Part shown: positions 30,873-50,227 of the stretch, piece after piece | How the letters are laid out: the number at the start of each line of letters is the position of its first letter | How positions within the stretch are numbered: the stretch's first letter is position 1 | NCBI GenBank assembly: GCA_024274875.1 | Contig: JAJSAH010000020.1 | Span: forward strand, 3,897 to 67,896 | Direction: 5' to 3' | Length of the DNA stretch: 64,000 bases | Source of the DNA: an archaeon | GTDB taxonomy: Archaea; Micrarchaeota; Micrarchaeia; CAILAH01 | The notes under the pieces: generated by a model | The model's database searches: none | What the model saw: only the letters and a program-made list of their open reading frames with translations | What the model was told of the DNA's origin: nothing | Translations under genes and position numbers: made by a program

Positions 30873-33800
30873 CTACTCGCATTTATATTTCTTATACAAC
30901 TCCATCAAACGCGATTGGTCGCACATGTTGCCCTGCTGACCTTTAGGAATATCACTTTCAGAGAATATCATCAACGCCTGGCCTTCTCCCATATAATAGT
31001 AATTGCCGCATAAGTCAAACCAATGGCGCGCATACGGATCCTTCCTAACTGCGTTCTCAAGTATAACATCTGGATTGTTAACATCTTCAAATGAATTTAA
31101 CAGGTCTGCAACATCACTGCCTTCTCCGAAACTTGGCAGAGATATTCCTGATGAAGACAGCAGGTCTGAGTAAGATGATATTGTGTTTTCAAACTGCCCA
31201 TAACTTGATGCAAGATCCCCCTCCGTTTCGAAAGATGTGCTTGCAGACGATCCAAACATCGCTCCAGCATACTGCGAAAATGTGGGCATTCCGGGATACA
31301 GTTGATCCGTATGCACTCCATACGTGAATGGATCTTCCCCGCTTGTTGATGAATCATAATACAATCCGTAATCTTCGCCAGCTATCCCTGTTGACAATGG
31401 TTTGCACGAAGTATCAACCAAACAATACTGCCCCATGCCTATTATGCCTGAGCCGATCATTATCACAAAATCCTGGCCGTATAGGTCTTTCAGCTGCTTA
31501 ATCATTTCAGTATTAGTCCAACACGATTCATCCTCGTTTGCATTTCTATTTATGCCAAACCCTATTATTATTGATGGCATTCCATGATTAACAAGAGCAT
31601 ACCGCGATACATTATACAATCCTTCCAAATATGAAGAAATGGTGCACTCGCCTCTGCGCCCTGCGCCAGGGTCATCAATCACGACAATATATCCAACCAT
31701 ATCTGCCCTTTGCAGACCTTCACCCATTTTTTCTTTCAGCTTTTCATCAATCGCATCAATAGCATTCTTCATATTCTCTATATCAGCATCGCTCAACCTA
31801 AGTTCATTTGATGACATATGTATGTAAAACGGAATTGTCGAAATGCACCTCTGCTTGTAAACAGTGTTCTCATAAGGGCACATATACTTATATTGCAAAC
31901 CGTAACTTTCGCAGAAATCCTTATCTAAATCAACGCAGATGCCAGTATCCTCATCGCAGCAGCATCCATCAATTGAAAAATCGCGGTAGTCATAAGTATG
32001 CTCGATGTTTTCAGTTTCGGATTGTTCAGTTGCGCCGCCGCAAACTTCATCATCAACAGATTTAACGCTTCTGCACACACCCTCAATCTCTGCAATCTGG
32101 TCAGCAAGCCCTGAATAGCCTTCATCGCCTACGCTCGCAAGCTGGCTTACATCAATAAGCTCAGTTGTGATAAAGGAAGGTGTTGCAGGAGCGCGCGGGT
32201 TTAGCAGCTGCGTCCTGTAAACTGGATTATCCGCGCCCATTTTAGGCTCTGCGATTGATTCAGCAATCTCAGCCAGTATTGATAATTGGCTCGGGCTGCC
32301 AATCTCATCAACTGTGGCATATAGTTGCCTCTGCGTCAACGAATCTATAATTGAATGGGTGCTAACACGCTGCGCATCTCTGCATACGCGATCTCCAGGG
32401 CTCAAAGATTGCTCATCTTCAAAACCAGTTAAATAGTCTTTGAATATCACCGTTCGATCTTCATCATCTCTGTTAGTTATGCATAAGCGCGAATCTTCGC
32501 TGTTAGGAATGCTTACTTTTCGCGGCTGGAATGAGCTTATGTCTAACTCAATCTGAACCTCAGGTTTATACACATTAACTGTAAAGCTTTTTCCAGAGTA
32601 AGGGTTGTAAAATAGATACCTGATTTTTTTGCCATCGTTCGGTATCTGCAGCTCATTCGCAGTATTGAATGTTTGATGCTCGCCAGGACTTAATTCAAGC
32701 CGTCTTATCTTATCGCCCATCTCCACAGATTTGGCAGACAAGTATGCATCCATATCGATCGGGCTTACTGAATACTGCACGGAATCAATTATGCAATCCT
32801 CATAATCTCCGCTGCATATTTTGGTCATCTTATTCTGTATAACTCCATATATATCATCTTCCGAACACGGATCGAGCGCGCCGTAATACCATACAACTGC
32901 ATCAGGCCCTGTGTTATTTATAACTATTTCATCGCCGAGAGCAACATCAAGCTCATCAACTGAAACTGCGGTAGACGGATCACCTGGATCGATCTGCTGC
33001 ATTACGGTTAAGTTGTATAGATACACATCTGCATACAATGCGTTCTCCATAATGTAATCCATGCTAAGCGAAGTATTTCTGTACATTCTCCCATCGTGCG
33101 CAAAAGATGGCACTTTGTACAGCAAATCGCCCAACTCAGTATCTGCAAGATTGCGAGCGAACGGCGATATATGAGAAAATATAATTTCCTTCCCATCTTG
33201 CACATCTAAAAGATTTGGGTAGTAAGGCGACTCATGCACTGAATACCATCCCTGCATATCTGGAGAGTATGAAACCGTGCCAAGCGGCGAGATAACCTCT
33301 TGAATTCCATCAAATGTGTCCTCTCCATAACAAACCGCTTTCAGCCCTGACTCGCTGTTAATTTGGAATACGTCTGAGATCGCATAACCCTGCCCAAACT
33401 CGCTCACTCCTTCCTGAACCTCGCCTGCCAAAAAGTACGTGCGCCCAGGATCAATGCTGTTCACCATGAACAGAATGCCGTTTGTAAGAGAAGATTCATC
33501 TATTCCTCCTCTTATTCTGTTTCCTGGATCTAAATCATTGTTTGGATTGCTGGATGTATCGCAGGGCGTTTCTGGGAATTCGTAATAATCATTATTTATG
33601 AACCTATACACTCCATTATACTGGCCCACTGGATTTGATAGGTCGAAAAAGCGCACTCTTCCGCTCTCATCTTCTGAATATGCAAATGAATCTATTCCGC
33701 CAATCACATTCGCCAAATACCAATTGTCATCTCTCGTGCCCTTCAACTGGGAATCTGCGCCCCAATCCTGCTTTGTAGCCCTGCACCAATACCAAAGCTC

Positions 33801-36800
33801 TGTGCCTTCCTCATCAACTGTGCTATCTTCTGCAGGATAACCGCACAGCGCCCCGTATTTGTTGTATATTATCAACGGCTTAGAAGCAGCAACTATTAAA
33901 TCTGACCACAAAGCATTCTTAACATCATTGCTTAACCTACCTGGGATAGGCTTTGCTTCAAAATCCCGCTTATCACCGCAAGTCCTGCCGCCATAATTTT
34001 GGTTATAATCTCCTACAAAATCGCCCGTAAGCAAAAACGGCTGGGTCGTAATCAGCCTGCCGCACGGCCTCTGTATAGAATAATCATCAACAAATTTGAG
34101 GGCCGCATCATTGATTATTTCGCCATTCGCCAATATGAGCGTTTCTGGAACAATTTCAACAAAGCGTGAATCTGCGATATCGATTTTTCCATAATCCTGC
34201 CTATGCGACAGATCATACGGGTTTGGCACACTGCCAGGCATAATCGAACCAAATCCATACTGCAATCTGCCCACAACCTGCGGAAGCAGCACATAATCAT
34301 TTCTCTTGCTGCGCAAATACTCATATTTGCCAACGCCCCCAGCAAACGCGTCTCCTCCAAGCTCAGGCACTCCAATAATATGAGGAAATGAGTATGCAAA
34401 TTCTTCAGGATACACTGTGTTGTTGAACGGAACTATGAACCCAATCTTTTCTCCGATAGTATTTACATAACCGCACCCTGATTTCACCCAACCTGGCCTT
34501 TCCTCGCCGGGATTCTCGTTGTGGTACCACTTATCATACCACATGCTTGGGAATACATTAACACCCTTAACAACAAACAACGATCCTTTCCAATTCTTCA
34601 GCATGCTTTCACTGAATGCGCCTCCCGAATCGCTGTTGCTTAATATCCACGAACGGCCTGGCGCATACCTCCTGAGCAGTACTGAATAAGAATCTGAATA
34701 AACATCTCCTCCCAAGTCAACATATGTAAATCTCATTATCTTGTCGGATGTCTCTAACGCAATAGGAGTGAATATTCTGTACTCCCTTACTGCAAAGGTA
34801 TCCTTCATCCCTGTGATATACCCAGGAGTTAACTCAATTGTTCGCTGTTCAAGCTTAGATGTATATGTGTTTGGGATTATCCTATGCGTGCTTTTCAGCA
34901 CAAGAGACCCTACTCCATTTTCATCTGTATCTTGACTCCTGCCCAAAGATAATTTAATATCATCATATCCCATGTTCGGCAGCAGGGTTATATCAGTAAC
35001 TTTGGCTGCGCCGCCAACATACGGATCATGATTTGATAACGCATCTATATCGCTTGCCGATAAAGAATATGCAGTCATTTTCTGCGGGCTCCAAAACTGC
35101 TGAAGATCTGCTGTTGCGGGAGAGCCGTCATCAACTAACATGCAGTAAGAGTTTGCGCTGACATCGCTCGGCCTAAGCATTACTGCTCTGGGATCCTCTG
35201 CAAGATTGTGAAGCCTAACGAGATAATTGTCCGTTCCATGACTGTCCATTCTGTACGCATCATAAGAAACTTTCAATTCGTGAGTAACCGCGGCTTTCTT
35301 TAAATTGAACTGCTTTGACACTGTTCCGCTGCTCACGCTGAAAGTTATATCTTCATCAGGCATTTCAAAACTCCATCCATTCAACGAAGGCGAATATGCG
35401 CCAGCTTCAGGAGGAGCAGATACATCATCTCTTGAAATTCCATCTGCAAGCGTCACATTGACCTTGCTGCCTTCTGCGATTGAATAATTCTCAGGAATCG
35501 AAGGGTCAACCATATTAACATCAGTATCGCCAATTCTGGAATACACAAATACAGGCAATGCGTTATCATACGCGAGCATAGAACGCGCCTGCATAATCTC
35601 TGTCTTGCTCGGAACGCCGGACAACATTTGAACGCCAAACCCTAATGTGCTGCTTGAACCTACCCTTCCCAACGCAGATGCAGAACCTCCTTCAACATCG
35701 CCGCGTATCACTAACATATTTTTGGGAATATTGAACTGCTGCGCATCTTCATCATAATAACTTAGAGCAATGCCTCCTATCCTGCGCACAACAAAAACAT
35801 TAGCGCCAGGACGCAAAACTATTGAATCTCCACTGATCATGCGCCGCGCATTAATGCCAACCTCGAGATTTACAAAACCTGATTTCATATCATCCTCCTT
35901 GTACTGCACATTAAGCGCGCGCATCTTGTAATCTCCAAGCTGATATTCATACACTACCTGCTCGTTCGCAGGCGCTGTGATTGAGCGTTCTCCGTTTGAT
36001 GAATAAACTTTAATAGATATATCATAATCCGCATTGTTGCGTATCACGACATCCGGCACAGACAAATCTAACCTTGCCATGCTGAACCCTGTCCCATTTG
36101 AGATAGATAAATCCTCATACACTTTGTAATTAATATCATCAAGATTAACTACTTTTACATCAGGGAATTGCGAGAACAGATCTAAATTGAGCGGACCTTC
36201 AAACGCAGATGCGTAATCTGGAAACGCAACTTCAGCATATCCAGGCACGGAATTGCCGTTTACTATATATAATATGTTCTTGTCCCCTACCGCAACAAGA
36301 GCGTACAACCCAGTATCAGCATTCCTGAACATGTGCAATCCATCTGAATTCATATCATAGCATCTTTTCTGGCCTTTGGAAATCAATTCGCCTGACTGCG
36401 CAGCGCCGTTATCCCATTCCAAAGAAGACGAATCTGAAACTAATGTTGGCCCAATTATCCTAACATCAGAATCTACAGCATTTATGCATACCTTTCCGCC
36501 TTGAGCGACCCTTCCATCAGTAGGAACAAATGCAGTTGAATACGCATCTATGTTAAGAACATCGCCCCCAGTAGTTGAGATGTAAAACTTTGCGCCGGAC
36601 AATGTATCAACCAATTCATAGTTTGCTTCATTCTCAGACAAACTATAATCGCAGTAATCCTGCAACGGAGGCAACATAAATGAACCTGAATGCCCTTCAT
36701 CGCTCGAATACTCAACCTCTCTCTCTTCTCCAACAGGGTTTGAGATGCATATGAGGTCATCCTTTTTTGCGATAGATGAATACGGGGAATAATCATAATC

Positions 36801-39296
36801 ATTCACCCGAATGTTTGATTGGACATCCGATGGGAACACAACAACATACGCTTTGTTTCCAGCAGGATACTCTTTGTCTGAAATCCTGTAAATGCCGGGC
36901 TCTTTTATATCAAAACAGCATTCAAGACCAAAATATGATGATTTTGCCTGCACAGGCAGGTATGAATTCGGTTCATACAACGCCTTCTTTTCAAGCACAA
37001 GCGTTTTCTTTCCGCTGGGAGCTTCATTGCGCACGCACAACTTTGAGCCAAAAGGAATGGAGATTGCAACTGGAGCAAACAACGGCTCGTTGCTTCCCTG
37101 CACAGTTATAGTATCACCTTCAGTGTAAACTACATAACTGAAATCTTCGCTGCCTATGGTTGCAGTATACTCACCCGGGCCAGGCGCATACAGCAAGCGG
37201 ACTTTGTCATGCTCTACAACACGCATCACTATGCGCAATGACGAATCGCCTGCATCAAAAGAATCAGTCATTTCATCCTCTTGAGACCCGCTCCCTTCTA
37301 AATATACTGAACCATCCTCATTAACGCCAAAAGTTATTCCTTCGCCTAAATCCACTGAACTGCCCCTGCTCATCTCAGATATATCAAGATCGGCGCCTCC
37401 ATAAGATGCGCCAAAATAACTGCCTTCATTAATGGAGAAACTTGGACCCTGCAACTCTCCAGTGAACACTCCTGAAGCGTCATAATCTGCAGATGCAAAC
37501 ACTGCATCCAATTTAACAACGCCTTTGTAATAGAACTCAGGATTGCCTGCATTGTCAAGCCGCATCTCATTAAAATCAGTTATGGTTAGGTCTTCAGGAG
37601 TTATCACGCTAACTATGGCAAATGCATGCTCATTATCATCTACACCTATCTTTGTGGTTCCCAGAGTGAAATTTGTGCCCGAACCTGTTGGGAAACAGGT
37701 GCCTTTTCCTGCTTCAAGATATTTCAGAAGCGTCCTTGCCCCGCCATTTCCAATTAAATGCAATGTGTGATCCTTGCCTCCAACGTTGTCAAAGCATACC
37801 TCACCACCTTCAAACACAGTTGTGGTGCTTGGAGAGAATGGCAATAATCCTGCGCTTATTTCAATGTCCGCAGGTTTTGATGGCTTGCATAGTTTTTTAG
37901 CAAGCTCGTAATCATTAAAAGAGGGTCCCTGGCCAAGCATGAATATAGGTATTTCTTGGTTCTCGCTTGTCAGAACTTCCTTATACAATCCAGATGAGAA
38001 ATTATGCACTCCATAAACATACCCGCCCTGCGAAGAAGTATCAGATGTCTTCTTGCAGTATGTGTAATAATACTCATCATTTGAATTCGGCCGAGTGCAT
38101 TTGTATGTAGAATACACTGCAATATCGCATCTGCACTTGCAGATGAAATATCTCTGCTCGTCTTCTCCAGAGAATTCATCTTTGCCGCAAGTGTACACAT
38201 TCTTATAATACGGACCCAATGCATCCATCACCTCAATGCGCACATACCTGCCTTTTCCTATCCCTGCCCTGTCTATTTCAACGCATGGGTTTAAGCCATT
38301 GCATTTATTGAACTCTAAATCGGAATATGAGAACCCGCGCGCAGTAACGCCTGCATCAGATTTGCTGAAATCCTCTATGTCATCATTCGCATGCTCGCGC
38401 GAACACCTGTTGCACTCTTCACCTTTATCAGGGTTTTCCTTCGCTTCGCTGCATATATCTTCGCATCCTTTCACATATGTATCTGAACTTTCTTCAGATG
38501 AAGAATCAAGATACTCCTGAGCCAATTCTTCAAGCAACCTGTAATCATCTCTCAAGTTATCTATTCTCTTTGAATCAGGAGGATAAGCTGATGTGTCAAG
38601 AATAGGGTTGTATTCGAACCCTTTGGCATTGTATGGATACTGAATCGGCATGTTGGCTTGGCAGCCCATAGGGATTTTATAGGATAGTATGCCCCCCTCA
38701 TCACAGGTATAGCAACCTTCCTGCAAACTCGTGCAATTCAACGCATATTCAGAATTCCTAGCTGAGTCAGATACTGCGTTGCATCCCATATAATATGTTT
38801 CATCGCTTTGCTCATCCAACTTGAACTTCCCTATTGATCCCAAACCATCATAAAAAGATCCAGGATGGAGCGATTCGGAAGGGTATGCAATTCCAAACCC
38901 ATACCCGCGATCTCTCTTACCGCAGACCATTCCAGTGATGTAATACCCTACTTTTTTCTCAGTATCGAATGAACAATCATATTTAAGGCACAGCGTATCT
39001 GGAATGCTTAATACCTCGCATCTGTCACCTCTGTCTTCATAATACACAGTCCCCCGCGGGTCATCATTTGCCCCTTTATACGCAGGAGAACACTCCCACT
39101 TAACGTTCTTTTTCTCAACTTCTTTAACAACTGCCATGCAGCTTGCTTGTTTGCATTCGATGGGGGATTCAGGCACAGTCGGTTCGGCAGATTCCACAGT
39201 AATTTTCGTTGGGAGCTCTTGCCGAACATCATATTTAAGGCACCCTGCAAAGAACAATGCAACCAACAATAACAGCGCAGCGGTTAGTTTATACAC
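30873..39296 (-). CDS. Giant surface protein, 2807 aa, lipoprotein-type signal peptide
   Basis: MYKLTAALLLLVALFFAGC (lipobox-like), uninterrupted 8.4-kb ORF, many N-x-S/T sequons, Cys pairs, acidic Ser/Asp-rich tail; no TM beyond signal. Confidence 0.8.
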   Translation of the reverse strand: MYKLTAALLLLVALFFAGCLKYDVRQELPTKITVESAEPTVPESPIECKQASCMAVVKEVEKKNVKWECSPAYKGANDDPRGTVYYEDRGDRCEVLSIPDTLCLKYDCSFDTEKKVGYYITGMVCGKRDRGYGFGIAYPSESLHPGSFYDGLGSIGKFKLDEQSDETYYMGCNAVSDSARNSEYALNCTSLQEGCYTCDEGGILSYKIPMGCQANMPIQYPYNAKGFEYNPILDTSAYPPDSKRIDNLRDDYRLLEELAQEYLDSSSEESSDTYVKGCEDICSEAKENPDKGEECNRCSREHANDDIEDFSKSDAGVTARGFSYSDLEFNKCNGLNPCVEIDRAGIGKGRYVRIEVMDALGPYYKNVYTCGKDEFSGEDEQRYFICKCRCDIAVYSTYKCTRPNSNDEYYYTYCKKTSDTSSQGGYVYGVHNFSSGLYKEVLTSENQEIPIFMLGQGPSFNDYELAKKLCKPSKPADIEISAGLLPFSPSTTTVFEGGEVCFDNVGGKDHTLHLIGNGGARTLLKYLEAGKGTCFPTGSGTNFTLGTTKIGVDDNEHAFAIVSVITPEDLTITDFNEMRLDNAGNPEFYYKGVVKLDAVFASADYDASGVFTGELQGPSFSINEGSYFGASYGGADLDISEMSRGSSVDLGEGITFGVNEDGSVYLEGSGSQEDEMTDSFDAGDSSLRIVMRVVEHDKVRLLYAPGPGEYTATIGSEDFSYVVYTEGDTITVQGSNEPLFAPVAISIPFGSKLCVRNEAPSGKKTLVLEKKALYEPNSYLPVQAKSSYFGLECCFDIKEPGIYRISDKEYPAGNKAYVVVFPSDVQSNIRVNDYDYSPYSSIAKKDDLICISNPVGEEREVEYSSDEGHSGSFMLPPLQDYCDYSLSENEANYELVDTLSGAKFYISTTGGDVLNIDAYSTAFVPTDGRVAQGGKVCINAVDSDVRIIGPTLVSDSSSLEWDNGAAQSGELISKGQKRCYDMNSDGLHMFRNADTGLYALVAVGDKNILYIVNGNSVPGYAEVAFPDYASAFEGPLNLDLFSQFPDVKVVNLDDINYKVYEDLSISNGTGFSMARLDLSVPDVVIRNNADYDISIKVYSSNGERSITAPANEQVVYEYQLGDYKMRALNVQYKEDDMKSGFVNLEVGINARRMISGDSIVLRPGANVFVVRRIGGIALSYYDEDAQQFNIPKNMLVIRGDVEGGSASALGRVGSSSTLGFGVQMLSGVPSKTEIMQARSMLAYDNALPVFVYSRIGDTDVNMVDPSIPENYSIAEGSKVNVTLADGISRDDVSAPPEAGAYSPSLNGWSFEMPDEDITFSVSSGTVSKQFNLKKAAVTHELKVSYDAYRMDSHGTDNYLVRLHNLAEDPRAVMLRPSDVSANSYCMLVDDGSPATADLQQFWSPQKMTAYSLSASDIDALSNHDPYVGGAAKVTDITLLPNMGYDDIKLSLGRSQDTDENGVGSLVLKSTHRIIPNTYTSKLEQRTIELTPGYITGMKDTFAVREYRIFTPIALETSDKIMRFTYVDLGGDVYSDSYSVLLRRYAPGRSWILSNSDSGGAFSESMLKNWKGSLFVVKGVNVFPSMWYDKWYHNENPGEERPGWVKSGCGYVNTIGEKIGFIVPFNNTVYPEEFAYSFPHIIGVPELGGDAFAGGVGKYEYLRSKRNDYVLLPQVVGRLQYGFGSIMPGSVPNPYDLSHRQDYGKIDIADSRFVEIVPETLILANGEIINDAALKFVDDYSIQRPCGRLITTQPFLLTGDFVGDYNQNYGGRTCGDKRDFEAKPIPGRLSNDVKNALWSDLIVAASKPLIIYNKYGALCGYPAEDSTVDEEGTELWYWCRATKQDWGADSQLKGTRDDNWYLANVIGGIDSFAYSEDESGRVRFFDLSNPVGQYNGVYRFINNDYYEFPETPCDTSSNPNNDLDPGNRIRGGIDESSLTNGILFMVNSIDPGRTYFLAGEVQEGVSEFGQGYAISDVFQINSESGLKAVCYGEDTFDGIQEVISPLGTVSYSPDMQGWYSVHESPYYPNLLDVQDGKEIIFSHISPFARNLADTELGDLLYKVPSFAHDGRMYRNTSLSMDYIMENALYADVYLYNLTVMQQIDPGDPSTAVSVDELDVALGDEIVINNTGPDAVVWYYGALDPCSEDDIYGVIQNKMTKICSGDYEDCIIDSVQYSVSPIDMDAYLSAKSVEMGDKIRRLELSPGEHQTFNTANELQIPNDGKKIRYLFYNPYSGKSFTVNVYKPEVQIELDISSFQPRKVSIPNSEDSRLCITNRDDEDRTVIFKDYLTGFEDEQSLSPGDRVCRDAQRVSTHSIIDSLTQRQLYATVDEIGSPSQLSILAEIAESIAEPKMGADNPVYRTQLLNPRAPATPSFITTELIDVSQLASVGDEGYSGLADQIAEIEGVCRSVKSVDDEVCGGATEQSETENIEHTYDYRDFSIDGCCCDEDTGICVDLDKDFCESYGLQYKYMCPYENTVYKQRCISTIPFYIHMSSNELRLSDADIENMKNAIDAIDEKLKEKMGEGLQRADMVGYIVVIDDPGAGRRGECTISSYLEGLYNVSRYALVNHGMPSIIIGFGINRNANEDESCWTNTEMIKQLKDLYGQDFVIMIGSGIIGMGQYCLVDTSCKPLSTGIAGEDYGLYYDSSTSGEDPFTYGVHTDQLYPGMPTFSQYAGAMFGSSASTSFETEGDLASSYGQFENTISSYSDLLSSSGISLPSFGEGSDVADLLNSFEDVNNPDVILENAVRKDPYARHWFDLCGNYYYMGEGQALMIFSESDIPKGQQGNMCDQSRLMELYKKYKCE

Positions 39297-40071: not shown

Positions 40072-41136
40072 CTAAATCACCCTTACCATGCCGCGGCCAA
40101 TATCTGCAATATTGCCGCCAAGTATTTGCGCAACTGTTCTTGCGAACAGCACTGTCCCAACCATTGCTATGAACGGGAAGAAATACGAATATAAACGCAC
40201 TACGGAGAATCCTGATGCATCCATCTTTGGCAATGCACTGCCATACCCGCTTCCCGATGACTTCTGCTTAAAGAATTCCTCGACTGCTGACGGATCGTTT
40301 GGGCACAGCTTCTTGCCCTGCTGCGCAGGAGGGCTCTCCTCAACCTCTGCGATTATGGAGCAACTCGACGGAAGTTTAGGTCCGCTGAAAAATAAAATAT
40401 TCAAGAGGAACGGATACACAAAATACAGCGAGATTGATACAGCCATTATCGCTGCTCCGGCGCCGCGAGTGTAAGGGAATGAACGCAACAGAATGCCTAT
40501 GGGGAGGTAGACTGCCACCATGCTTGCCTCAATCCACTGCAGGAAGTTTATCTGGAAATATGTGGCTATAGAAAGCCAAAGTATATTCTCTGATTCAACG
40601 ATCGAATTCATCAAGGATTTCCATGTTGAAATGAATAGCGGAGATAAAGGCAACGGGATGTTCGCGCCAAGAACATACGTAGACAATCCCATGCGAGTTA
40701 AGATCTCCTCAGATTGATCATTAAGCCTTGCCTCATATTCTGATTTGAGGCACTTTGTCATAGCGATGAAATATACATAAGATACATCAAATATATTTAC
40801 TTGAAATCCTGGCTTGCCAAGAAGCCGTTGAGCTGCTTCCTCGCTAATCATATCGCGTATATCCTTGTCCTGCGTGATGAGCAACGCAGATGATGACTCA
40901 AACGCAGCAAGAAACATAATCAAAATTATAGTTGCGCCAAGCTGATACATCTCCTTTCGCACAGTCATCTCTAATCTCCGAGAACTGAATACGCGCGAGA
41001 TCATGTACAACAAAGACAGCGAAAATGCAATAATCATTACCACTGTCATTGCGATGGAAAGCCAACCTGCCGGCAGATTTCCTGCAAGATTGCTCGCAGA
41101 AGTTTCCCACAATGAACCTATCGTAAACCAAAACAT
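40072..41136 (-). CDS. Polytopic membrane protein, paralog 1 of 6 (novel family)
   Basis: LPIGILLRSFPYTRGAGAAIMAVSISLYFVYP and C-term GGNIADIGRGMVRVI. Confidence 0.6.
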   Translation of the reverse strand: MFWFTIGSLWETSASNLAGNLPAGWLSIAMTVVMIIAFSLSLLYMISRVFSSRRLEMTVRKEMYQLGATIILIMFLAAFESSSALLITQDKDIRDMISEEAAQRLLGKPGFQVNIFDVSYVYFIAMTKCLKSEYEARLNDQSEEILTRMGLSTYVLGANIPLPLSPLFISTWKSLMNSIVESENILWLSIATYFQINFLQWIEASMVAVYLPIGILLRSFPYTRGAGAAIMAVSISLYFVYPFLLNILFFSGPKLPSSCSIIAEVEESPPAQQGKKLCPNDPSAVEEFFKQKSSGSGYGSALPKMDASGFSVVRLYSYFFPFIAMVGTVLFARTVAQILGGNIADIGRGMVRVI

Positions 41137-41137
41137 G

Positions 41138-42241
41138 TTATACCGCCCTCATAATGCCGCTTATGTCAACTTCCGTGCCTAACGCACCTGAAATGCTGCG
41201 GACCGCTGCTGCCATAAGCATCACTTCCAAAACTGGCAGGAAGAATGCTATCAGCATTATTGACCCAAATGATGAATAAACGCTTGCTAAGTCGGATTCA
41301 ACATATTCCGAAGATCCGGTTATAAACCCTAATTCTGATGCAGCCATGGTTGATCCTGTTGCAATGCCCATTACCGCTCCAAGCTTCGACGCGCTTCCTA
41401 TTGCGCCTGCCAAAGATACGCCAAGCATGGCTGCAGATAACGGGACTATATAAACCATTGCGTCAACGCTGTCAAGCTCGCTGTAATCAACACCTCCCGC
41501 CATTTCAAACCCGAAAGTAACCATCAAAGGATATATGAATGACATTCCAAGCGACACTGCGATTAGCACGCCGCCAAATTTCCTAGTTAAAGAAAATGAC
41601 CTGAACACCAACCCCACAGGAAGAAGCATCATGAATACTTTGCTCTGCGCAATCTTGAATATAGTATACTGAAAGATTATGGAAAAATACGCAAGCAAAA
41701 CTGATTGAGAAACTGGGGCAATCATGCTTGCCACTATGCTATGCGTGCCGAATGGGGATAACAGTACGCTCACGCCATGCAATGAAAAACCTGTGTAAGC
41801 GCTGCCAAGTTTTGAGTAATCCATGATTGCATTCGACATATCAAGGTATACATCAAGGATTGTTCCAGCAAGCATCTGAAATTTGCTCTCCGTCTGAACA
41901 ACCATCGCGCTCACCCCTCCGTTATAACCCAATCCATCTTCATATATGGAGATGCCGCATAGCAAAGGGATGACTGCGCGCAATGCAACTGCAAGCAGCA
42001 AAGTAATCCCTATCTGCTGGAATTCATTTTTAGTGGTCGCCTCTATTTCCGGGCTGCCCATCAGGCTGCCAATCATATACCATAATGAGACAAGCAGCCC
42101 AGAAATCATTATTCCCATAAGGAATATTGATGCAAGGTCATCTGAAATAATTTGCGCGCAGGAAGATGATTGCGCGTGCGCATCGCTGGCAATTATTGCA
42201 AGCATGATGACCAATGATGCTGCTAGTGTTCTTAACTTCAT
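41138..42241 (-). CDS. Polytopic membrane protein, paralog 2 of 6 (signal peptide)
   Basis: LPVGLVFRSFSLTRKFGGVLIAVSLGMSFIYP; C-term GTEVDISGIMRAV; N-term MKLRTLAASLVIMLAIIASDAHA. Confidence 0.6.
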   Translation of the reverse strand: MKLRTLAASLVIMLAIIASDAHAQSSSCAQIISDDLASIFLMGIMISGLLVSLWYMIGSLMGSPEIEATTKNEFQQIGITLLLAVALRAVIPLLCGISIYEDGLGYNGGVSAMVVQTESKFQMLAGTILDVYLDMSNAIMDYSKLGSAYTGFSLHGVSVLLSPFGTHSIVASMIAPVSQSVLLAYFSIIFQYTIFKIAQSKVFMMLLPVGLVFRSFSLTRKFGGVLIAVSLGMSFIYPLMVTFGFEMAGGVDYSELDSVDAMVYIVPLSAAMLGVSLAGAIGSASKLGAVMGIATGSTMAASELGFITGSSEYVESDLASVYSSFGSIMLIAFFLPVLEVMLMAAAVRSISGALGTEVDISGIMRAV

Positions 42242-42242
42242 A

Positions 42243-43334
42243 TCATACCACCCTTACCAACTGCGAGAAATCAATCTCGCTACCAAGCAAATGCGCAAAC
42301 TCGCGCGCCATTCCTAATGAAACAATAATTGCAAGCATTGGCAACAGCATGCCTTCCACGCCCATCGTCAGAAAGATAACTGCTATGCCTGAACTGCTGC
42401 CATAGGACAGGTTGTCTGCCGCATTCCCAACTAAATCTGAAATGGTGGGGTTGTCAAAACCTGAACCAACGCCAAATTCAGAAGCAAGACCTTTGTATGC
42501 ATCTGTCTTGCCTGCGAACTTAGTCATTATGACGCCTCCTAGGTCAGTGAGGATATCTGATTCTCCGCACTTTGGATCTGACGGATTATAGCTCATCCCC
42601 ATCGTTTGCACGAGCAATTCTTTGTTGAACAGGTACATGCCAGGCAGCACTAAGTACAGAGCCATGAACAGCGCTATGAGAAGGTTGCCCGCATGCCTGG
42701 AGAACTTAAACGACCTAAAGAATATGCCTAGCGGGAGCAGAGCGCTTGCCCCTTTATCGACAACAAACGAAATGATCAAATGATGCAATTTAACCATGCC
42801 AAGAGGTATGAACATATAACTCTGCACATTTGCAACTGAAGTCAAAAGCGGCTGCAGAAACGGCGCAAACGATATGCCTGCATGCCAAGTTGACAAGCCA
42901 GGCGCCTTGCCTTCCTCTTTGTCCTTCCCGCTGGATTTCATATTGGCAGTATCAGTATCCGATGCAGATTTAACATCCTGCGGAGTGCCTCTCATGCTGA
43001 ATACAGATGGATTAAAATTGAATGTTATCGATGCAATCAGCGAAAGAACATTGGAATCAGCAATGAAGGATGCCTGACATGAAACCATCTTGTTGAACAA
43101 GTAAGATATATACTCCTGCGAAGAGGTCACATAATCAGTTATGTATGAAAATGATGCAAAGGACGCCAAACTTGCAAACAGAACTAAAGTGATGAACACA
43201 TTCTGCATCTCGAGCTTCGACCAAGCTCGCAGAACTTCTGAGTTAAGGAGGTATGACAGCATGTATATGAGCACAGTAAGCAGGTATGATGAAATTACAC
43301 CTATTATTGCAAGCTCGTTCCAAGTAACCATCAT
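42243..43334 (-). CDS. Polytopic membrane protein, paralog 3 of 6
   Basis: LPLGIFFRSFKFSRHAGNLLIALFMALYLVLP; C-term GSEIDFSQLVRVV. Confidence 0.6.
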   Translation of the reverse strand: MMVTWNELAIIGVISSYLLTVLIYMLSYLLNSEVLRAWSKLEMQNVFITLVLFASLASFASFSYITDYVTSSQEYISYLFNKMVSCQASFIADSNVLSLIASITFNFNPSVFSMRGTPQDVKSASDTDTANMKSSGKDKEEGKAPGLSTWHAGISFAPFLQPLLTSVANVQSYMFIPLGMVKLHHLIISFVVDKGASALLPLGIFFRSFKFSRHAGNLLIALFMALYLVLPGMYLFNKELLVQTMGMSYNPSDPKCGESDILTDLGGVIMTKFAGKTDAYKGLASEFGVGSGFDNPTISDLVGNAADNLSYGSSSGIAVIFLTMGVEGMLLPMLAIIVSLGMAREFAHLLGSEIDFSQLVRVV

Positions 43335-44728
43335 AACAACCTCCCTAACGCAGGTATCTCAACATCGCCGCCCAACAATGGAGACAGCCCGCGTATGAAT
43401 GAGAATAATACATAGAAGTTTATCAACGGCAACGCCAGCGCAACTATCAGGTATCGAGAAATAAGGTCAAACGCGCCTACCTTTCCTGTTTCATAGTCTG
43501 TGTACAAATCATTCGCATCCTTGATTGTTGCACTGTTAAGGCTGCTTATAGCTACCAACACTGATATAAGCACAAGCACATCGATAGCCGTTTTAAGGAT
43601 GCCTCCAGGGGTCGTCACAAGCTTTACTATTTCAGCTACGCGCAATGCAGTAAAACCCATTATAACTAATAGCATTGCAAGAGCCGAACCTAGCGTGCTA
43701 TCCCCAAATGCATCGGGCAACTCTGATATTGTTTCAAAGAAATCCTCCTCGCCAGTTTCAGGAATACCCATGCCAGACATGCTAGCGCTCTCAGATATGC
43801 CTGCCTCCTGCATAGGTTTTATATCAATCGTGTACCACCCCAATGCATAAAGCATCGGAAGAACATACATAAACCCAATCCCCATCGCAAGGAATAAGCC
43901 TCCGGCTTTTCTGAATACCCATATTGACCTAAATAAGATGCCAAGAACTATCAACCCGCTCGCAAGGCCGAACTCAAAAAACTTGAGTATGCTTTCTTGG
44001 AATTTGATGATCATCATTATCTTTTCCGTGAATGCAATGAGGTTGTCAAGAGTGTTCAGAAGCACTGAGTGCAGCGGGAAAGATGATGCAAAACTTATCC
44101 CAAAAATCTGGTCAAGAATGCTCATGTCTGTGCTGAACCCAAACGAATCTATTGAGTAATATATTGAGTAATCATGCATGAAATTTTTCAAAAGAACTGC
44201 AAGCTTTTCATAAGTTATCCCTAAGTACGAACGTGCCATGAGGAATTTTGGGTCGCAGTTTTCAGCGCCTGGACCTGTGCATACTGCCTTGCCTCCGACC
44301 ACCGAAACTTTTAGCCCATTTCCTGATTCTCTCCACCTGTTTGAGGCGGGATCATAAACCAAATCAGTCCTTAATTGGTGGCATTCAGGACCTTCGCAGC
44401 TCACCTGCGGATTAACGATGCCTACAAAAAACTCATCAGTAATGCCATTCACAAGCGCAAGCGCGCCTACCAGCGATGCAACGATTATTGCAGAAAATAC
44501 TGCCTGCATAACCTCATTCCTGCACCACGCTTTGATTTCCTCATCTTCAAGCATATACGAAACCATGTACGCAAGCGAAACCAACAGCAGATGAATTATG
44601 ATTACTGCTGCAGCAAGCGAAATCCAACCTGTTGTGTTGAACAGGTCAAACCACCCAACATCATCGCTAGCAGCGTAAGCAAGAATCATCAACATCGCGA
44701 ATGACAGAAGAATTTTGCTAGACATCAC
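43331..44728 (-). CDS. Polytopic membrane protein, paralog 4 of 6 (Cys-containing extracellular loop)
   Basis: LGILFRSIWVFRKAGGLFLAMGIGFMYVLP; C-term GGDVEIPALGRLL; loop CEGPECHQ...CTGPGAENC. Confidence 0.6.
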   Translation of the reverse strand: MMSSKILLSFAMLMILAYAASDDVGWFDLFNTTGWISLAAAVIIIHLLLVSLAYMVSYMLEDEEIKAWCRNEVMQAVFSAIIVASLVGALALVNGITDEFFVGIVNPQVSCEGPECHQLRTDLVYDPASNRWRESGNGLKVSVVGGKAVCTGPGAENCDPKFLMARSYLGITYEKLAVLLKNFMHDYSIYYSIDSFGFSTDMSILDQIFGISFASSFPLHSVLLNTLDNLIAFTEKIMMIIKFQESILKFFEFGLASGLIVLGILFRSIWVFRKAGGLFLAMGIGFMYVLPMLYALGWYTIDIKPMQEAGISESASMSGMGIPETGEEDFFETISELPDAFGDSTLGSALAMLLVIMGFTALRVAEIVKLVTTPGGILKTAIDVLVLISVLVAISSLNSATIKDANDLYTDYETGKVGAFDLISRYLIVALALPLINFYVLFSFIRGLSPLLGGDVEIPALGRLL

Positions 44729-45657
44729 ATCGGCACCTCACCAATAAAGTCTTTTGAGAACATTGGGAACACTGACCTCGCTGCCGCAATAGACAAAATC
44801 ACCGCAAGCAATGGCAGAGTTAGCGCGTAAGGCGATATGTACGCGAGCCTCGTGACCGCTTTAAGCGAATCTCCATCATCAAAATCATACGCATCGCCAA
44901 GCGCAGAACGATCTATGCGCTTCTCAAGCTGCTTCAAGAAATCCTTGCTAACATCCTCATGAATCTTCGCGCCGAGCACATACACCATGGGATACACAAA
45001 ATAGAATGCAAGGGAAAGCGATATTAAATACGCACCTGCATCGCGCGTGGTTGGGAGAATCTTCAGTATAAATCCTGCCGGAAGCAACAGAGCTAAGAAA
45101 TATCTCTTTATGAAATCAAGCGCTAATATCTGCATCACCAAAGATGCCGAAAAAGGGATTATTACATTAGCCATCATCTCAAGATTGTTCGCTATGTACA
45201 CGCTGCCTGCCTTCTCCGTATAACACGTCCCTGCCATGCATGAAGGAGCGGGAGTGATGAGAGTTGATTCTACGCGCGCTTTGACTGCAGAATCCCACAG
45301 GATATTTATGTTAAGAGGTATGGAGTCCTCATAAACTGATCCTATTGCAAACCGAGCAAGGTAGGCTCTGCCAACTGAGAACGGATCCTCGCCTTCACCT
45401 ACCATGAGCGAAGTTGTTTCATACAACAGCGCAGCAAACCCAATTATCCCTATTATCATGAGCAATGAGATGACCAACCTTGCAAACTCTACCTTTGCCC
45501 TGCCTTCCCAATCAGGCCTCTGCATAACCCTCGCTATCATGTAAAACAGCGCAATTATAAGATAAGTGATTATGAACAGCAGCATTACCACAGGTATCCA
45601 AGAGAAATACCCTTGAGGCTCAAACAATAAATCAATGAATGTCACCACCATAATCAC
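44725..45657 (-). CDS. Polytopic membrane protein, paralog 5 of 6
   Basis: LPAGFILKILPTTRDAGAYLISLSLAFYFVYP; divergent C-term. Confidence 0.55.
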   Translation of the reverse strand: MIMVVTFIDLLFEPQGYFSWIPVVMLLFIITYLIIALFYMIARVMQRPDWEGRAKVEFARLVISLLMIIGIIGFAALLYETTSLMVGEGEDPFSVGRAYLARFAIGSVYEDSIPLNINILWDSAVKARVESTLITPAPSCMAGTCYTEKAGSVYIANNLEMMANVIIPFSASLVMQILALDFIKRYFLALLLPAGFILKILPTTRDAGAYLISLSLAFYFVYPMVYVLGAKIHEDVSKDFLKQLEKRIDRSALGDAYDFDDGDSLKAVTRLAYISPYALTLPLLAVILSIAAARSVFPMFSKDFIGEVPM

Positions 45658-47040
45658 CTATATGAATGTAAGCATGTTTACCACTGATTCATCACCGCCG
45701 AACGCTTCAACAAGCGCTTTCATGCCGCTCAGCACAAACACTATGTTAAAGAACGGCATGAAAAATGCATACGCAAACATATCTGCGCTCATGGCAATTT
45801 GGCTTGCGATGGCTTCTCCAATCTGAATGCCTACCAATCCAGGACCGCTCAAAATCAATGACAATACGGCCGATACGGATGTAAGCACGCTGTACACCAA
45901 GCTTATTATGGTCCATAAGACATCAAATGTCCATACAACTACGCCCAATACAGGAAATATGGATACGCATACAGCAATGCATATGTACCTCAAGAAGCCT
46001 GACGGGCATTGGTCAACAAGCCAATTGAAAAAGTCCCATAAATATACTGGTATGTTAAGCAGGCTGAAAAAATTAACTATATCTGAGGGCAGGCCTGATG
46101 CAGATGACACAGTGCTATCCATGCTTATGCCTAAATTGTTTAATCCTGCATCGCGCAAAAGAATCTCGGAAGATGTGCTCCCTGAAGAATCTATGCCTGT
46201 CAACTGGCCTGATGCGCTAAGCTGCGAATACACCGCTGCCTCAAACACAAGTATCAACTTGAAGAACAAAAACCCGCCTAAAAATATGCCTAATAAAGTG
46301 CTTCCCATCCTCCTCGTAAAAGTGAATGCGCGGAGAAATAACGCAAGGCCTATGAATATGTGAATTGTTTTCTCAAAAAATGCCAGCAGAAGCATCTGCC
46401 CGGTTATAGAGATAATTGCTGTAATAAGTATGGGCATGAACATGCTCGCAAATACCATAACTAAAGAATATGCTGTCTGCGGCGCGTAGTAGAATGAATA
46501 CGTCCAGCTCACAAAAAATGTGTTGTATGCTGCGGGAGACCAACTAATTGCGTTGAGCAATGATGCAAAAGATGTAAACTGCGAAAGGCCAACCAACTGG
46601 TCAACTGATGAATGAATCACTGAAGAAAAAACTTCTTGATATGTTTGATCAGGAGTAAATGAATTTACCAACGCATCGAATACCGGGAAAAATGCAACTA
46701 TCAGAGCAGCATACACCGTGCTCATAAACACTTCCCTAAGCTCTGCTCTGCTCCAAATCTCCAACTCCCTTGAAGAGAATATTGAAGCGCCCATAAACCC
46801 TAACGCAACGATTGCATATGAAATTATCAGCGCAATCGCAATCCCATAATCAAATAGAAAACTTTCCAAACCAGTATCCTGCGGTGGGACCTGAAACTCA
46901 GATCCTTGCACTCCCGCCTGCGGAAATGCTTCGAGCTCTGAGCCCTGGCCTTGCAACGGATGAACCTGAGAATAAGCCGCGCCTGCAATTAAAATGAAAA
47001 AAAGCACCGGCAAGAACAGGCGGTTAGCGCTTGCATCCAT
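45658..47040 (-). CDS. Polytopic membrane protein, paralog 6 of 6 (first gene of operon; signal peptide)
   Basis: IGLALFLRAFTFTRRMGSTLLGIFLGGFLF; start set at MDASANRLFLPVLFFILIAGAAYSQ (ORF-track start 47136 would overlap divergent gene). Confidence 0.55.
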   Translation of the reverse strand: MDASANRLFLPVLFFILIAGAAYSQVHPLQGQGSELEAFPQAGVQGSEFQVPPQDTGLESFLFDYGIAIALIISYAIVALGFMGASIFSSRELEIWSRAELREVFMSTVYAALIVAFFPVFDALVNSFTPDQTYQEVFSSVIHSSVDQLVGLSQFTSFASLLNAISWSPAAYNTFFVSWTYSFYYAPQTAYSLVMVFASMFMPILITAIISITGQMLLLAFFEKTIHIFIGLALFLRAFTFTRRMGSTLLGIFLGGFLFFKLILVFEAAVYSQLSASGQLTGIDSSGSTSSEILLRDAGLNNLGISMDSTVSSASGLPSDIVNFFSLLNIPVYLWDFFNWLVDQCPSGFLRYICIAVCVSIFPVLGVVVWTFDVLWTIISLVYSVLTSVSAVLSLILSGPGLVGIQIGEAIASQIAMSADMFAYAFFMPFFNIVFVLSGMKALVEAFGGDESVVNMLTFI

Positions 47041-47098
47041 AACTTGAATTCGCTGATTAAATATATAAATATGATATGAAATATAGCTTTGACATAAC
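47041..47098. promoter_or_regulatory. Divergent promoter region with shared TATA element
   Basis: ttaaatatataaatat centred about 30 bp from both the 47040(-) and 47099(+) starts. Confidence 0.4.
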
Positions 47099-50000
47099 AT
47101 GAGCATGAAAGCTTTGCACAGCAGTTTGCTAGCCATATTTGTAATTTCGTTGTTAGCGCTTAACCTAATCCATGCTAGCGCAGGATGTCTTATTCAAAAA
47201 ATCCCCACAGCGCTTGAGTTAAAAGAATCATACGATCCAGACACAAACAAGCTAATACTTTATGCTAAGTTGACATACATAGACCCAAATACTGGATTGG
47301 GCAAACCGCTCGAACAAAAAAAACTTAAATTCTACGTGAATTACACCACATCGCAAGGCAGTGAAAAAACTGATTCTTCAGTTTTATTTACTGACAGCAA
47401 AGGGAAGGCATCTGCGTTATTCGTTCTAAGCAATGCAGCAGAGCATAATTCAGCGGTTGTCTTTGAAGGCGATGATCTGTTTGGGAAAAGCATAGGCACA
47501 TTAAGCGGTGCGAAGGGCGCGCCGCAATCGTTTGAAACAAATCTTCCTGAAGGCATAAACATTACTACATGCATGCCGCTGCTTCTGCTGTTGGGATTTC
47601 TCGGTGCAGCGATGTATGCATCTGGAATGAATCCGTTTGGAGCTATTGATTTTACCGCGCCGCGCGGATTTACGATGCAGCGCAGGCTAAGGAAAGCATA
47701 CCAAGCAGGGTGGTTCTCAAGCATCGCAAGAGCTGTAGGGGGAACGCTGAGCGCAGTCGGCAGGTCAATGGTTAAAGGAAAAGGGGTTAAGGAAGAGGCG
47801 ATGAAAGAAGGAGAGAATGCAAACGAACAGAAGACCAAAGAGAAACTGCCTGTTAAGGGTAAGGGCAAGGGCAAATTGCCTACAAAAAGCAAAGGCGTGC
47901 GCATGGCCAGCAAGCAAGCGAAAAAAGCAATGGCCGCAAAAAAGCCTGTTGCAAAACCTAAAAAAATGGAAAAACCTCTGGGAGCGAAAGCAACGCTTGG
48001 AAAAGCCGCTCCAAAAGATGTTAGTTTAGAACAGCCAAAGACAGCTATCGCGCTCACCGCAACAGCAGGTTATGGGTTGATGCTCGACTTTTTAGGATGC
48101 ATTGCATCCGCCATGGGCGGCAATGTATGGGCTGCTAGTGGAATGAAGCTCAAAAAGCTCGATTTCATTAAAGATGGAAATAAGTACAAAGGTTATGTTA
48201 TACTCACGAACGCAACAACTCAAATCGTCAAAAAAGCTCTCTTTGAAGCTGCAAAAGAGCTATGGGCTAATAATTCATCTGTGCGCGAGGTAGGAAGCGC
48301 TTTGGCAAATGCAGTGCGTCAACTATCAGTGAATGCAGAGATTGGAAAAGACCTTGCAAAACGATTGGAAGAAGCAGTAGACTCGTTAAAAAACAAAGAA
48401 AAAAAGCTTAAAAAATCCATCAAATCGCTAAAAAAAGAAATAGAAAAAATCGAAGATAAGATGGATGTTGTGGGACCTGAAGAAAGAAAGTCACTCGCAA
48501 AGAAGCTTAATGAGAAAAACATTGAGCTGGACCTTGCTAAAGAACATCTCAGCGATGTTAAAGAAAGGATTACTGCTATTGAGGGAAAGATAAAAGCAAC
48601 TGAATCAATCATTGGAATGCCTACAAGGCTTGAGCAGATTGCGGAAGGCGCAAAACAGGTGAGCGAGATTGAAGAATCGCTTGCTGAAGTGCGTGAATCA
48701 GCGAAAAAAATATTTGAAGAGTTTGGCAGGGAGATGGGCGTAAGAAGGTATGACCAAATAAAAGTGAATAATCTCGAAGAATTCGCAAAACAATTAGAAA
48801 AGAAAGGCGATACTGAGAGGGCTGCACAGCTTCGAAACATGCTTGATGAATTCAAATCGAGCATGATTGATGCAGCGAACGCGCTAAGCAATGCGAGCAT
48901 GTTTGTGGGAAGTTCAAACGCAATGATACATAAAGGAAGCAAATTGTTGGGCGAATCTAGATTCCTTGCGGATGTTGATTCAAAAACTGTGCTGCAAGCA
49001 AAGTTGGGGGATATGGCAAGAAACCTGGATAATGCCATTGTTGGTTTCAACACGGTCAAAACCATGATTGATAATGGAATTCCAGTGAATTACAACATAG
49101 CTGTGAACTGCATAGATGATTTGACTGCTACGCTCGCAGCGCAGGGCATCAAATCAAAAAAGCTTGATGAACTGAGAATTAAAATGCATGAGTTAATTAA
49201 AAACCCTGAAACTGCCAGCGAAACCTTGAAAAGCATGCTCTCAATCGCGGATACGGATGTTTTACAAAATATTCGCAAGCACACCGAAAAATATGGCGTG
49301 CAGATAAAAACGCGCGGAGAGTTTGATAAGTTTATAACTAATATGAATGAGAAAGTGCAAAAAGCCGAAAAACCCGTGCAGGAAAAATTAGCTGAACCTG
49401 TTAAAAATCTTAAAGAATCCTATGATGCGCTGATTTCGTTCAGGGAACAGATGAAAGAGAATAAAGAGGTTGATTATCAGAAGCTAAACGAGCAAATCAA
49501 TAAAGCTAAAGAGTCGATTAACGCGCTTGGAATCAAACCCCCTGAAGCGCTTGACAAAATTAAGGAGAAAATTAAAGAACAGCCTGAATATGCAGATGAC
49601 AAATCTATCGGCAATATAATTGCAACAATAGATGTAGAAATTCTTCCTGAAGTAAAGAAACTGGCTGAGGAGAATAATCTTGAAGTAACCACAGAAAGCA
49701 GGTTTGATGAATATGTAAAAAATCTGAAGAAAGAATCAACGAAAGCGTGGGAGAAGAAAGACAAATATGTAAAAGAATACATGGCGGAGAAAGCAAAGAG
49801 CATGGCAAAAACTGAAAAAGAAAAAAAGATGGCTTCTAAATCTCCTGAGGCGGTGGTGCTGCGTCCAGTTGAACAGCCAATACCAAAAAACATAAAACTT
49901 GAAACCCCGCATTACGATGAAATTGTTAAGGAATTAAATAGAAGAAGTTACGAAAAGCTTGACAGATCGATAGAAGAAAGGAATAAACAGATTAACGACT

Positions 50001-50227
50001 TCTTGGAAATAGTTCCTGAAGAAAAACGGGATGCGATGGAGAAAGAACTATTTAATGAAAGACCGTTAATGCAAATGGATTTTGGAACGCTTGGCCCTCA
50101 AAAAGTTTTAGATATAGCTGAGGAAGAGGGGATAAGCAAAAGCGTGATAAAAGATGCAAAAAGAGAGATCGAGGGAATTAATCTTTTAAGAGAGGCATTG
50201 GGCCTTCAAAATGAATCTTCTGAATAA
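47099..50227 (+). CDS. Lys/Glu-rich coiled-coil membrane protein (1042 aa), divergent partner of the membrane operon
   Basis: Signal peptide ALHSSLLAIFVISLLALNLIHASAGC, TM ITTCMPLLLLLGFLGAAMYASG, AKK/PKK-rich linker, then about 700 aa heptad-like K/E-rich sequence. Confidence 0.6.
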   Translation: MSMKALHSSLLAIFVISLLALNLIHASAGCLIQKIPTALELKESYDPDTNKLILYAKLTYIDPNTGLGKPLEQKKLKFYVNYTTSQGSEKTDSSVLFTDSKGKASALFVLSNAAEHNSAVVFEGDDLFGKSIGTLSGAKGAPQSFETNLPEGINITTCMPLLLLLGFLGAAMYASGMNPFGAIDFTAPRGFTMQRRLRKAYQAGWFSSIARAVGGTLSAVGRSMVKGKGVKEEAMKEGENANEQKTKEKLPVKGKGKGKLPTKSKGVRMASKQAKKAMAAKKPVAKPKKMEKPLGAKATLGKAAPKDVSLEQPKTAIALTATAGYGLMLDFLGCIASAMGGNVWAASGMKLKKLDFIKDGNKYKGYVILTNATTQIVKKALFEAAKELWANNSSVREVGSALANAVRQLSVNAEIGKDLAKRLEEAVDSLKNKEKKLKKSIKSLKKEIEKIEDKMDVVGPEERKSLAKKLNEKNIELDLAKEHLSDVKERITAIEGKIKATESIIGMPTRLEQIAEGAKQVSEIEESLAEVRESAKKIFEEFGREMGVRRYDQIKVNNLEEFAKQLEKKGDTERAAQLRNMLDEFKSSMIDAANALSNASMFVGSSNAMIHKGSKLLGESRFLADVDSKTVLQAKLGDMARNLDNAIVGFNTVKTMIDNGIPVNYNIAVNCIDDLTATLAAQGIKSKKLDELRIKMHELIKNPETASETLKSMLSIADTDVLQNIRKHTEKYGVQIKTRGEFDKFITNMNEKVQKAEKPVQEKLAEPVKNLKESYDALISFREQMKENKEVDYQKLNEQINKAKESINALGIKPPEALDKIKEKIKEQPEYADDKSIGNIIATIDVEILPEVKKLAEENNLEVTTESRFDEYVKNLKKESTKAWEKKDKYVKEYMAEKAKSMAKTEKEKKMASKSPEAVVLRPVEQPIPKNIKLETPHYDEIVKELNRRSYEKLDRSIEERNKQINDFLEIVPEEKRDAMEKELFNERPLMQMDFGTLGPQKVLDIAEEEGISKSVIKDAKREIEGINLLREALGLQNESSE

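Follow-up and report, generated by a model that had tools for sequence, protein, structure and literature searches.

We identified a tandem array of six mutually homologous membrane-protein genes (M1–M6, referred to below as the hexad) in the genome of an archaeon of the phylum Micrarchaeota. The array occupies positions 40072–47040 of a 64,000-nucleotide stretch of DNA, here called the window (GenBank assembly GCA_024274875.1, contig JAJSAH010000020.1, positions 3,897 to 67,896 of the forward strand). Judging from the sequences, the hexad belongs to an undescribed, Micrarchaeota-specific protein family and represents an undescribed type of gene cluster. Our favored reading, to which we assign a probability of roughly 0.5, is that the six proteins form an obligate hetero-oligomeric membrane platform, probably with a 1:1:1:1:1:1 composition, which would anchor or export giant surface proteins encoded in the same cluster.

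Six paralogs in a fixed order

The six genes lie consecutively on the minus strand and encode proteins of 310–465 amino acids (aa). They had been described as paralogous membrane proteins in an earlier note on this DNA, made without database searches, and minus-strand open reading frames (ORFs) together with pairwise phmmer comparisons confirmed this: all six were mutually homologous, with E-values from 1e-10 to 1e-3 for a notional database of 1e5 sequences, and M1 was the outlier. M1 (array position 1, 45658–47040, 460 aa) diverges most from the others; its N-terminus is signal-like, and its second outer loop contains additional hydrophobic segments. Its start was placed at the ATG at 47040; the longest ORF extends to 47136 and would overlap a divergent gene that starts at 47099, and the public gene call for M1 likewise gives 460 aa. 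M2 (position 2, 44725–45657, 310 aa) is the smallest, or minimal, family member. It is followed by M3 (position 3, 43331–44728, 465 aa), with a signal-like N-terminus and four Cys residues in the first outer loop, M4 (position 4, 42243–43334, 363 aa), whose first outer loop is Lys-rich, and M5 (position 5, 41138–42241, 367 aa), again with a signal-like N-terminus. M6 (position 6, 40072–41136, 354 aa) contains a conserved Cys pair (C259 and C278) in the second outer loop and has the C-terminus LGGNI[SA]DIGRGMVRVI. The outer parts are diversified as the earlier note had stated, with Cys-containing (M3) and Lys-rich (M4) loops, but signal-like hydrophobic segments ahead of the first core helix are present in three members (M1, M3 and M5) rather than in two.

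A signature motif had also been proposed for all six proteins. In a MAFFT alignment, the motif region was in register in the six sequences, and the R and G of its TRxxG element were invariant. The strict form of the motif, LPxG[ILF]x[FL][RK][SA][FI]xx[TS]RxxG, was matched by only three of the six (M4, M5 and M6), but a relaxed core, [RK][SAI][FIL]xx[TSF]RxxG, was present in all six and in no other of 329 segments from a six-frame translation of the window (45,084 aa). The small-residue helix after the motif, expected to end with Y/F-x-x-P, ended with [YF/L]xxP (that is, with L allowed) in five members, M1 being the exception. The C-terminal motif suggested for most members, G-x-[DE]-[IV]-[DE]-[IF] and following residues, was strict in M3, M4 and M5 and recognizable in M6 and M1, but degenerate or lost in M2. 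The motif also persisted on a larger scale: across 108 diverse family members, nearly invariant positions (M2 numbering) were M40, E57, G195, K/R199, R205, G208, P223 and the Gly of the C-terminal LGGD, and conservation was at least 90% for E57, G195, R199, R205, G208 and P223.

The family is large. From clusters at 50% identity, an exhaustive HMMER search with a profile of the six proteins retrieved 2952 representatives with E≤1e-3, of which 2048 reached E≤1e-10, and all members with a source name were assigned to Micrarchaeota or Micrarchaeia, including Ca. Gugararchaeum. Six distinct sets of orthologs were present among the representatives, each separated from the other five by hundreds of bits in score. 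No precomputed Pfam domain was present on any family member, and the six proteins had no meaningful match in Pfam, NCBIfam or PHROGs. When 108 members were scanned against Pfam at E≤10, no recurrent family appeared among the best 25 of 72 matched families; the best were at noise level, with three members each for Abhydrolase_9_N, T4SS_pilin and DUF5684. When PDB sequences were searched with the profile of the family, nothing beyond chance matches (E>0.3) appeared. The earlier note had considered that the proteins might map to a known permease superfamily; neither curated transporter models nor solved transporters were matched significantly in Pfam, NCBIfam or PDB sequences, and fold searches gave nothing significant. 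We also found no description of the family or cluster in the searchable literature on Micrarchaeota and DPANN gene clusters, VirB6 and paralogous membrane proteins. The absence of a detectable relative in Pfam, NCBIfam, PHROGs and PDB is what points to an undescribed family and gene-cluster type.

We then compared the array with related loci (designated L001–L010 and L012–L015) in Micrarchaeota metagenome-assembled genomes (MAGs). All 10 complete arrays, including that of the window, contained exactly six members, and these arrays fall into three sequence groups whose members are only distantly similar. An eleventh array, in L014, was cut by a contig end, with six members still visible. Each of the distant loci L010, L012, L013, L014 and L015 had exactly six tandem family members, and L001, L002, L005 and L008 contained partial arrays cut by contig ends. 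L012–L015 were reached via long family members; a genome scan with M6 orthologs reached close relatives and one distant locus only, and a word-indexed homolog search was limited to close orthologs. In the close relatives of the window, the order of genes, M1–M6 followed by three downstream genes (P257, GIANT and P536) and preceded by a divergent gene (CC1042), was identical wherever the contig extended. M1 through GIANT were syntenic in L003, L004, L006, L007 and L009, with P536 reached in L004, and M1 orthologs occupied array position 1 in the same five loci. In L007, the position-5 gene (6119–7233) was split into two ORFs (277 and 94 aa), which may reflect a frameshift, a pseudogene or a sequencing error.

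Correspondence between array positions was also evident at the sequence level. In cross-locus comparisons, 202 of 252 best matches (80%) were to the same position, versus ∼17% (one in six) expected by chance, and between the three sequence groups the same was true for 120 of 168. Matching was almost complete for position 2 (40 of 42), position 3 (42 of 42) and position 6 (41 of 42). Together, the constant number and the positional correspondence indicate that the sixfold duplication is older than the divergence of these lineages and that neither number nor order has changed since.

The array is also tightly packed. Junctions between M1 and M6 have gaps of 0–1 bp or overlaps of 4 bp, and all junctions from M1 through GIANT are in the range of −4 to +1 bp. 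After M6, an unbroken same-strand string continues with P257, GIANT, P536 (after a 10-bp gap) and P893 (after a 7-bp gap). On the other side, a 58-bp AT-rich spacer (47041–47098) separates M1 from the divergent CC1042; it contains TTAAATATATAAATATGATATGAAATATAG and, from its sequence, is likely to be a bidirectional archaeal promoter. Translational coupling of the six genes implies that the subunits are probably made in equal amounts, and fixed number and order combined with overlapping reading frames are a signature of subunits required together in fixed proportion.

An alternative is that the six proteins are redundant or alternately used paralogs, serving different hosts or surface variation, and do not form one complex. 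The outer loops are indeed highly variable between paralogs. However, copy number normally varies in redundant families, and here it was always six, with no position gained or lost in the 10 complete arrays (position 5 of L007 being split); moreover, each position has its own orthologs, and the genes keep one order with overlapping reading frames. We consider redundancy very improbable. The preference for a hetero-oligomer expressed in the earlier note is strongly supported by position-specific orthologs, fixed order, constant six, positional matches and tight junctions, and the ring or stack that it envisaged may be the form of such an assembly.

The genomic surroundings are those of a typical archaeal chromosome. 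Flanking genes have housekeeping functions (aTrm56, PCNA, AglB, glutamate dehydrogenase, SRP54, FtsY, TFE, HerA, RNase HII and a Rad25-type helicase) and GC content is even across the array region; this DNA belongs to the core chromosome of an archaeon and not to an island. No PHROGs match and no viral contig match was found for the array region; given these features, a mobile element or virus is unlikely.

Subunit topology and known machines

Hydropathy, with short K/R-rich loops placed inside, predicted the same topology for all six proteins, with an outer N-terminus, five transmembrane (TM) helices and an inner C-terminus. In this layout, TM1 is followed by a short K/R-rich inner loop, TM2, an outer loop of 70–140 aa, TM3, the inner motif loop, TM4, a second outer loop of variable length, TM5 and the inner C-terminal motif. 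The signature motif had been placed within a helix; according to hydropathy and the M2 model, it is located instead in the short loop that joins TM3 to TM4 on the cytoplasmic side. The AlphaFold2 model of M2 (43 sequences) had a mean predicted local distance difference test score (pLDDT) of 85.2 and a predicted template modeling score of 0.78. Its helices 150–200, 205–250 and 263–300 far exceed bilayer length and, compared with the hydropathy-derived segments, suggest that TM3, TM4 and TM5 reach 15–30 residues outward. In the model, these extensions appear to form a helical ectodomain to which the first outer loop contributes two more helices and a β-hairpin.

Conservation was unevenly distributed over this topology. 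Cytoplasmic loop 2, which carries the motif, had the highest value (2.8 bits), followed by TM4 (2.4 bits) and the C-tail (2.2 bits), and the outer loops had 0.8–1.0 bits. Elements common to the six are on the inner face: a Glu where TM2 begins, the loop [RK]xxxx[TS]RxxG that connects TM3 with TM4, and the tail LGGDxxIxxLxRxx. The outer loops differ between array positions. The most extreme case is position 3, which is expanded to about 600–1683 aa in other lineages by insertions at the extracellular N-terminus and in the TM4–TM5 loop. Expanded position-3 genes (602–1683 aa) were present in L012 (10001–12907), L013 (3383–8029), L014 (1744–6795) and L015 (6223–8031). No recognizable domain was found in the insertions, and a PDB sequence search with a 1548-aa position-3 homolog was empty.

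Among known systems, the nearest in gross layout were VirB6/TrbL proteins (PF04610; TrwI of R388, PDB 7o3v and 8rtd), which are polytopic inner-membrane proteins in which a large outer loop follows TM2 and the C-tail is cytoplasmic. Hydropathy of the six proteins and of TrwI showed the same succession of two TM helices, a large outer loop, more TM helices and a basic C-tail, and long helices beyond the membrane, as in the M2 model, are a further similarity. VirB6 is a pentameric ring at the base of a surface structure, and Rickettsiales have tandem VirB6 paralogs (RvhB6a–e). The topology of VirB6 is reportedly also N-out, with five TM helices and C-in, a result said to come from Jakubowski et al. 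2004. In a Foldseek search with the M2 model, the TrwI chains 8rtd_L and 8rt9_F ranked third and seventh with probabilities of 0.60 and 0.44, weak TrwI/VirB6 matches came up in two fold searches made independently, and weak Pfam matches among the 108 members included T4SS_pilin in three and TcpE in one. These observations would agree with the six proteins being a divergent channel similar to VirB6/TrbL and belonging to a type IV secretion system (T4SS) or conjugation-like apparatus that would carry DNA or proteins between micrarchaeon and host.

We regard such a channel as unlikely. The TrwI matches were not significant (E-values of 0.5–0.8, TM-scores of 0.29–0.31), and hhalign comparison of the 108-member profile with a TrwI/VirB6 alignment gave a probability of 0.14% and an E-value of 0.42 over 16 aligned columns, the alignment being shallow (R388 TrwI and 22 homologs, 23 sequences in all, with at least 50% identity to TrwI). 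All TrwI homologs carried PF04610, a domain that had no match in the six proteins at E≤1 and was not among the best 25 of the 72 families matched by the 108 members at E≤10. Genes for VirB4, VirD4, VirB11, a relaxase or pilins were not found in or near the clusters, as judged by Pfam scans of the window and L010 and by precomputed Pfam matches in L001, L002 and L012–L015; in L003–L009, the assignment of genes flanking the array relied solely on their similarity to proteins of the window. The window contains a single ATPase of the FtsK/HerA type, a HerA located ∼23 kb away. In addition, the hexad has six distinct subunits versus a homo-pentamer, and a large outer loop between TM4 and TM5 that is absent from TrwI. 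Non-significant fold matches, negative hhalign, and lack of PF04610 and T4SS genes make VirB6 the nearest topological analog and not a family assignment, in agreement with the earlier note, which had offered it as an analogy and made no claim of homology.

Other polytopic archaeal membrane proteins that serve as platforms of surface machines include PilC/ArlJ (T2SSF, PF00482) and CedA. Unlike PilC/ArlJ, neither the six proteins nor the 108 members (among the best 25 of 72 matched families) had a PF00482 match, and no secretion ATPase or pilins were present in the cluster. Unlike the Ced DNA import system to which CedA belongs, no HerA/VirB4-like gene adjoins the cluster.

Neighboring genes and the proposed surface platform

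Downstream of the hexad, all operon products in the window are predicted to be anchored or secreted. P257 (39297–40070, minus strand, 257 aa) has an N-terminal TM anchor and an acidic ectodomain and was always directly after M6 in the clade of the window; it had no Pfam, NCBIfam or PHROGs match, and the other neighbors likewise had no meaningful match in these databases. It is joined with a 0-bp gap to GIANT (30873–39296, minus strand), an acidic protein of 2807 aa with 64 Cys residues and a lipobox-like signal peptide (..LFFAGC). GIANT contained no Pfam domain above threshold (with one weak Cupredoxin_1 match) and had no sequence relative in PDB. Orthologs of about 2800–3000 aa were located at the same position where the contig spans the whole gene (L001/L005, L004 and L007). 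We rejected GIANT as an S-layer protein; the known Micrarchaeota S-layer protein is ∼101 kDa and has PF05123, a domain absent from GIANT.

The last two genes of the string encode Cys-rich proteins that are paralogous to each other (E-value of 1e-46) and built of repeated C-x-C/CC modules. P536 (29252–30862, minus strand, 536 aa) contains 87 Cys residues (16%) and is predicted to be N-terminally anchored and extracellular, and P893 (26563–29244, minus strand, 893 aa) contains 89 Cys residues and is also N-terminally anchored. A PDB sequence search with P893 was empty, and a dockerin-type Ca-binding repeat was borderline (Dockerin_1, 22.8 bits versus a cut-off of 22.9). Local GC content rises to 0.51 over these two genes (26563–30862). 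Past P893, a KaiC/ArlH-like ATPase of 235 aa (25848–26555, plus strand) is convergent with the end of the operon. No other ATPase is encoded close to the cluster, and no related locus reaches beyond P536.

Upstream, CC1042 (47099–50227, plus strand, 1042 aa) has a signal peptide with a lipobox-like SAGC, a short ectodomain, a TM segment (153–171) and a Lys/Glu-rich coiled coil of ∼870 aa that is predicted to be cytoplasmic, making it a candidate cytoplasmic partner of the hexad. Its PDB sequence search was empty. CC1042 homologs were divergently upstream of M1 in L004, L006 and L007. A gene annotated as 'phage metallopeptidase' (PF18894, 50206–50595, minus strand) adjoins CC1042; the same neighbor was present in L006, and it may belong to the conserved neighborhood.

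Six paralogs in a row have a precedent. The mycobacterial Mce1A–F proteins (PDB 8fef) are encoded by six tandem paralogs in fixed order and form one envelope-spanning heterohexamer, which is the best precedent for six paralogs making one ring; the likeness is limited to this architecture. DPANN archaea generally rely on hosts for lipids, and the hexad could by analogy be a heterohexameric conduit for host lipids or other hydrophobic molecules, with the giant protein as a bridge. Exactly six tandem, positionally conserved paralogs, as in mce operons, the long extracellular helices of the M2 model and the very large extracellular proteins encoded next to the hexad would all be consistent with such a conduit. 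However, the MCE domain (PF02470), YrbE-type permeases and an MceG-type ATPase were all absent from the cluster in Pfam and NCBIfam searches, the Foldseek match to Mce1 (8fef_I) had a probability of 0.06, the subunits are polytopic with five TM helices versus one in Mce subunits, and the sequences give no sign of a hydrophobic tunnel. An Mce1-like role is improbable.

Returning to the favored platform, several observations weigh against it. The tie to giant surface proteins is not universal: in L010, a distant Micrarchaeota MAG (isolate SKW198; 11571–14442, plus strand), the hexad is followed by SecF and SecD with no giant gene. In the L012–L015 group, the hexad is followed by mutually homologous proteins of 1100–1700 aa, with gaps of at most 15 bp after the sixth member, and the second large protein is weakly similar to CC1042; these large proteins have no detectable homology to GIANT, and the 'cargo' therefore does not amount to one conserved family. 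None of the clusters encodes an ATPase or any other source of energy, which leaves active export unsupported. The model of M6 was of low confidence (pLDDT of 63.6), and the taxonomic range rests on named database members only. Finally, the family is without an invariant His, Cys, Asp or Ser that would indicate catalysis, but the proteins may instead act as a channel or in transport.

This last point leads to the reading that the hexad is a multi-subunit ion or solute channel or transporter, functionally unrelated to the surface proteins, whose adjacency would be historical. It would account for the nearly invariant charged residues at the membrane–cytoplasm interface (E57, K/R199 and R205), for the well-conserved TM helices and for the L010 hexad, which stands beside SecDF without a giant neighbor. 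On the other hand, there was no similarity to transporter families in the databases searched, in two of the three sequence groups the hexad is followed by genes for large surface proteins, and the position-specific diversification and expansions are all extracellular, which fits docking better than solute transport. On this evidence, we consider an unrelated channel or transporter unlikely.

For the platform itself, we infer physical hetero-oligomerization, its stoichiometry, an association with the surface proteins and involvement in contact with the host from the anatomy of the subunits and from their genomic context. The six genes would encode six non-interchangeable subunits of one membrane complex of Micrarchaeota, which belong to the DPANN archaea, and the subunits may come together 1:1:1:1:1:1 as a ring or bundle. 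On the inside, the conserved face might pack the subunits together or bind a shared cytoplasmic partner, for which CC1042 is the candidate, and the six distinct outer faces would hold P257, GIANT, P536 and P893 and possibly help in their export or assembly. The whole could be a cell-surface apparatus, plausibly for host contact, given that Micrarchaeota are host-dependent DPANN archaea. A more far-reaching possibility, which we put forward only tentatively, is that the hexad is the core of an unrecognized, Micrarchaeota-only envelope-spanning nanomachine, a heterohexameric ring that would resemble VirB6 in topology but have its own fold. It might combine with the giant and Cys-rich proteins and the coiled coil into a conduit or attachment organelle to hosts, drawing lipids, metabolites or macromolecules.

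Implications for Micrarchaeota

The hexad adds a membrane-protein family of ∼3000 clusters (at 50% identity) to the unannotated families, and may be the second natural example, after Mce, of six tandem paralogs marking a probable heterohexamer. Some Micrarchaeota have been cultured (Ca. Micrarchaeum harzensis, Ca. Mancarchaeum acidiphilum and Microcaldus variisymbioticus), which would make proteomics, electron cryo-tomography and pull-downs feasible after the hexad has been found in their genomes. Bridges, filaments and nanotubes have been seen in cryo-tomography of DPANN archaea. How these archaea attach to and exchange material with their hosts is, to our knowledge, an open question for which almost no DPANN-encoded components have been identified. 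The cluster described here, which was present in every Micrarchaeota lineage sampled and has no detectable relative among known machines, is a concrete candidate for such a role: it is chromosomal and tightly coupled, and combines six positionally conserved subunits with giant surface proteins.

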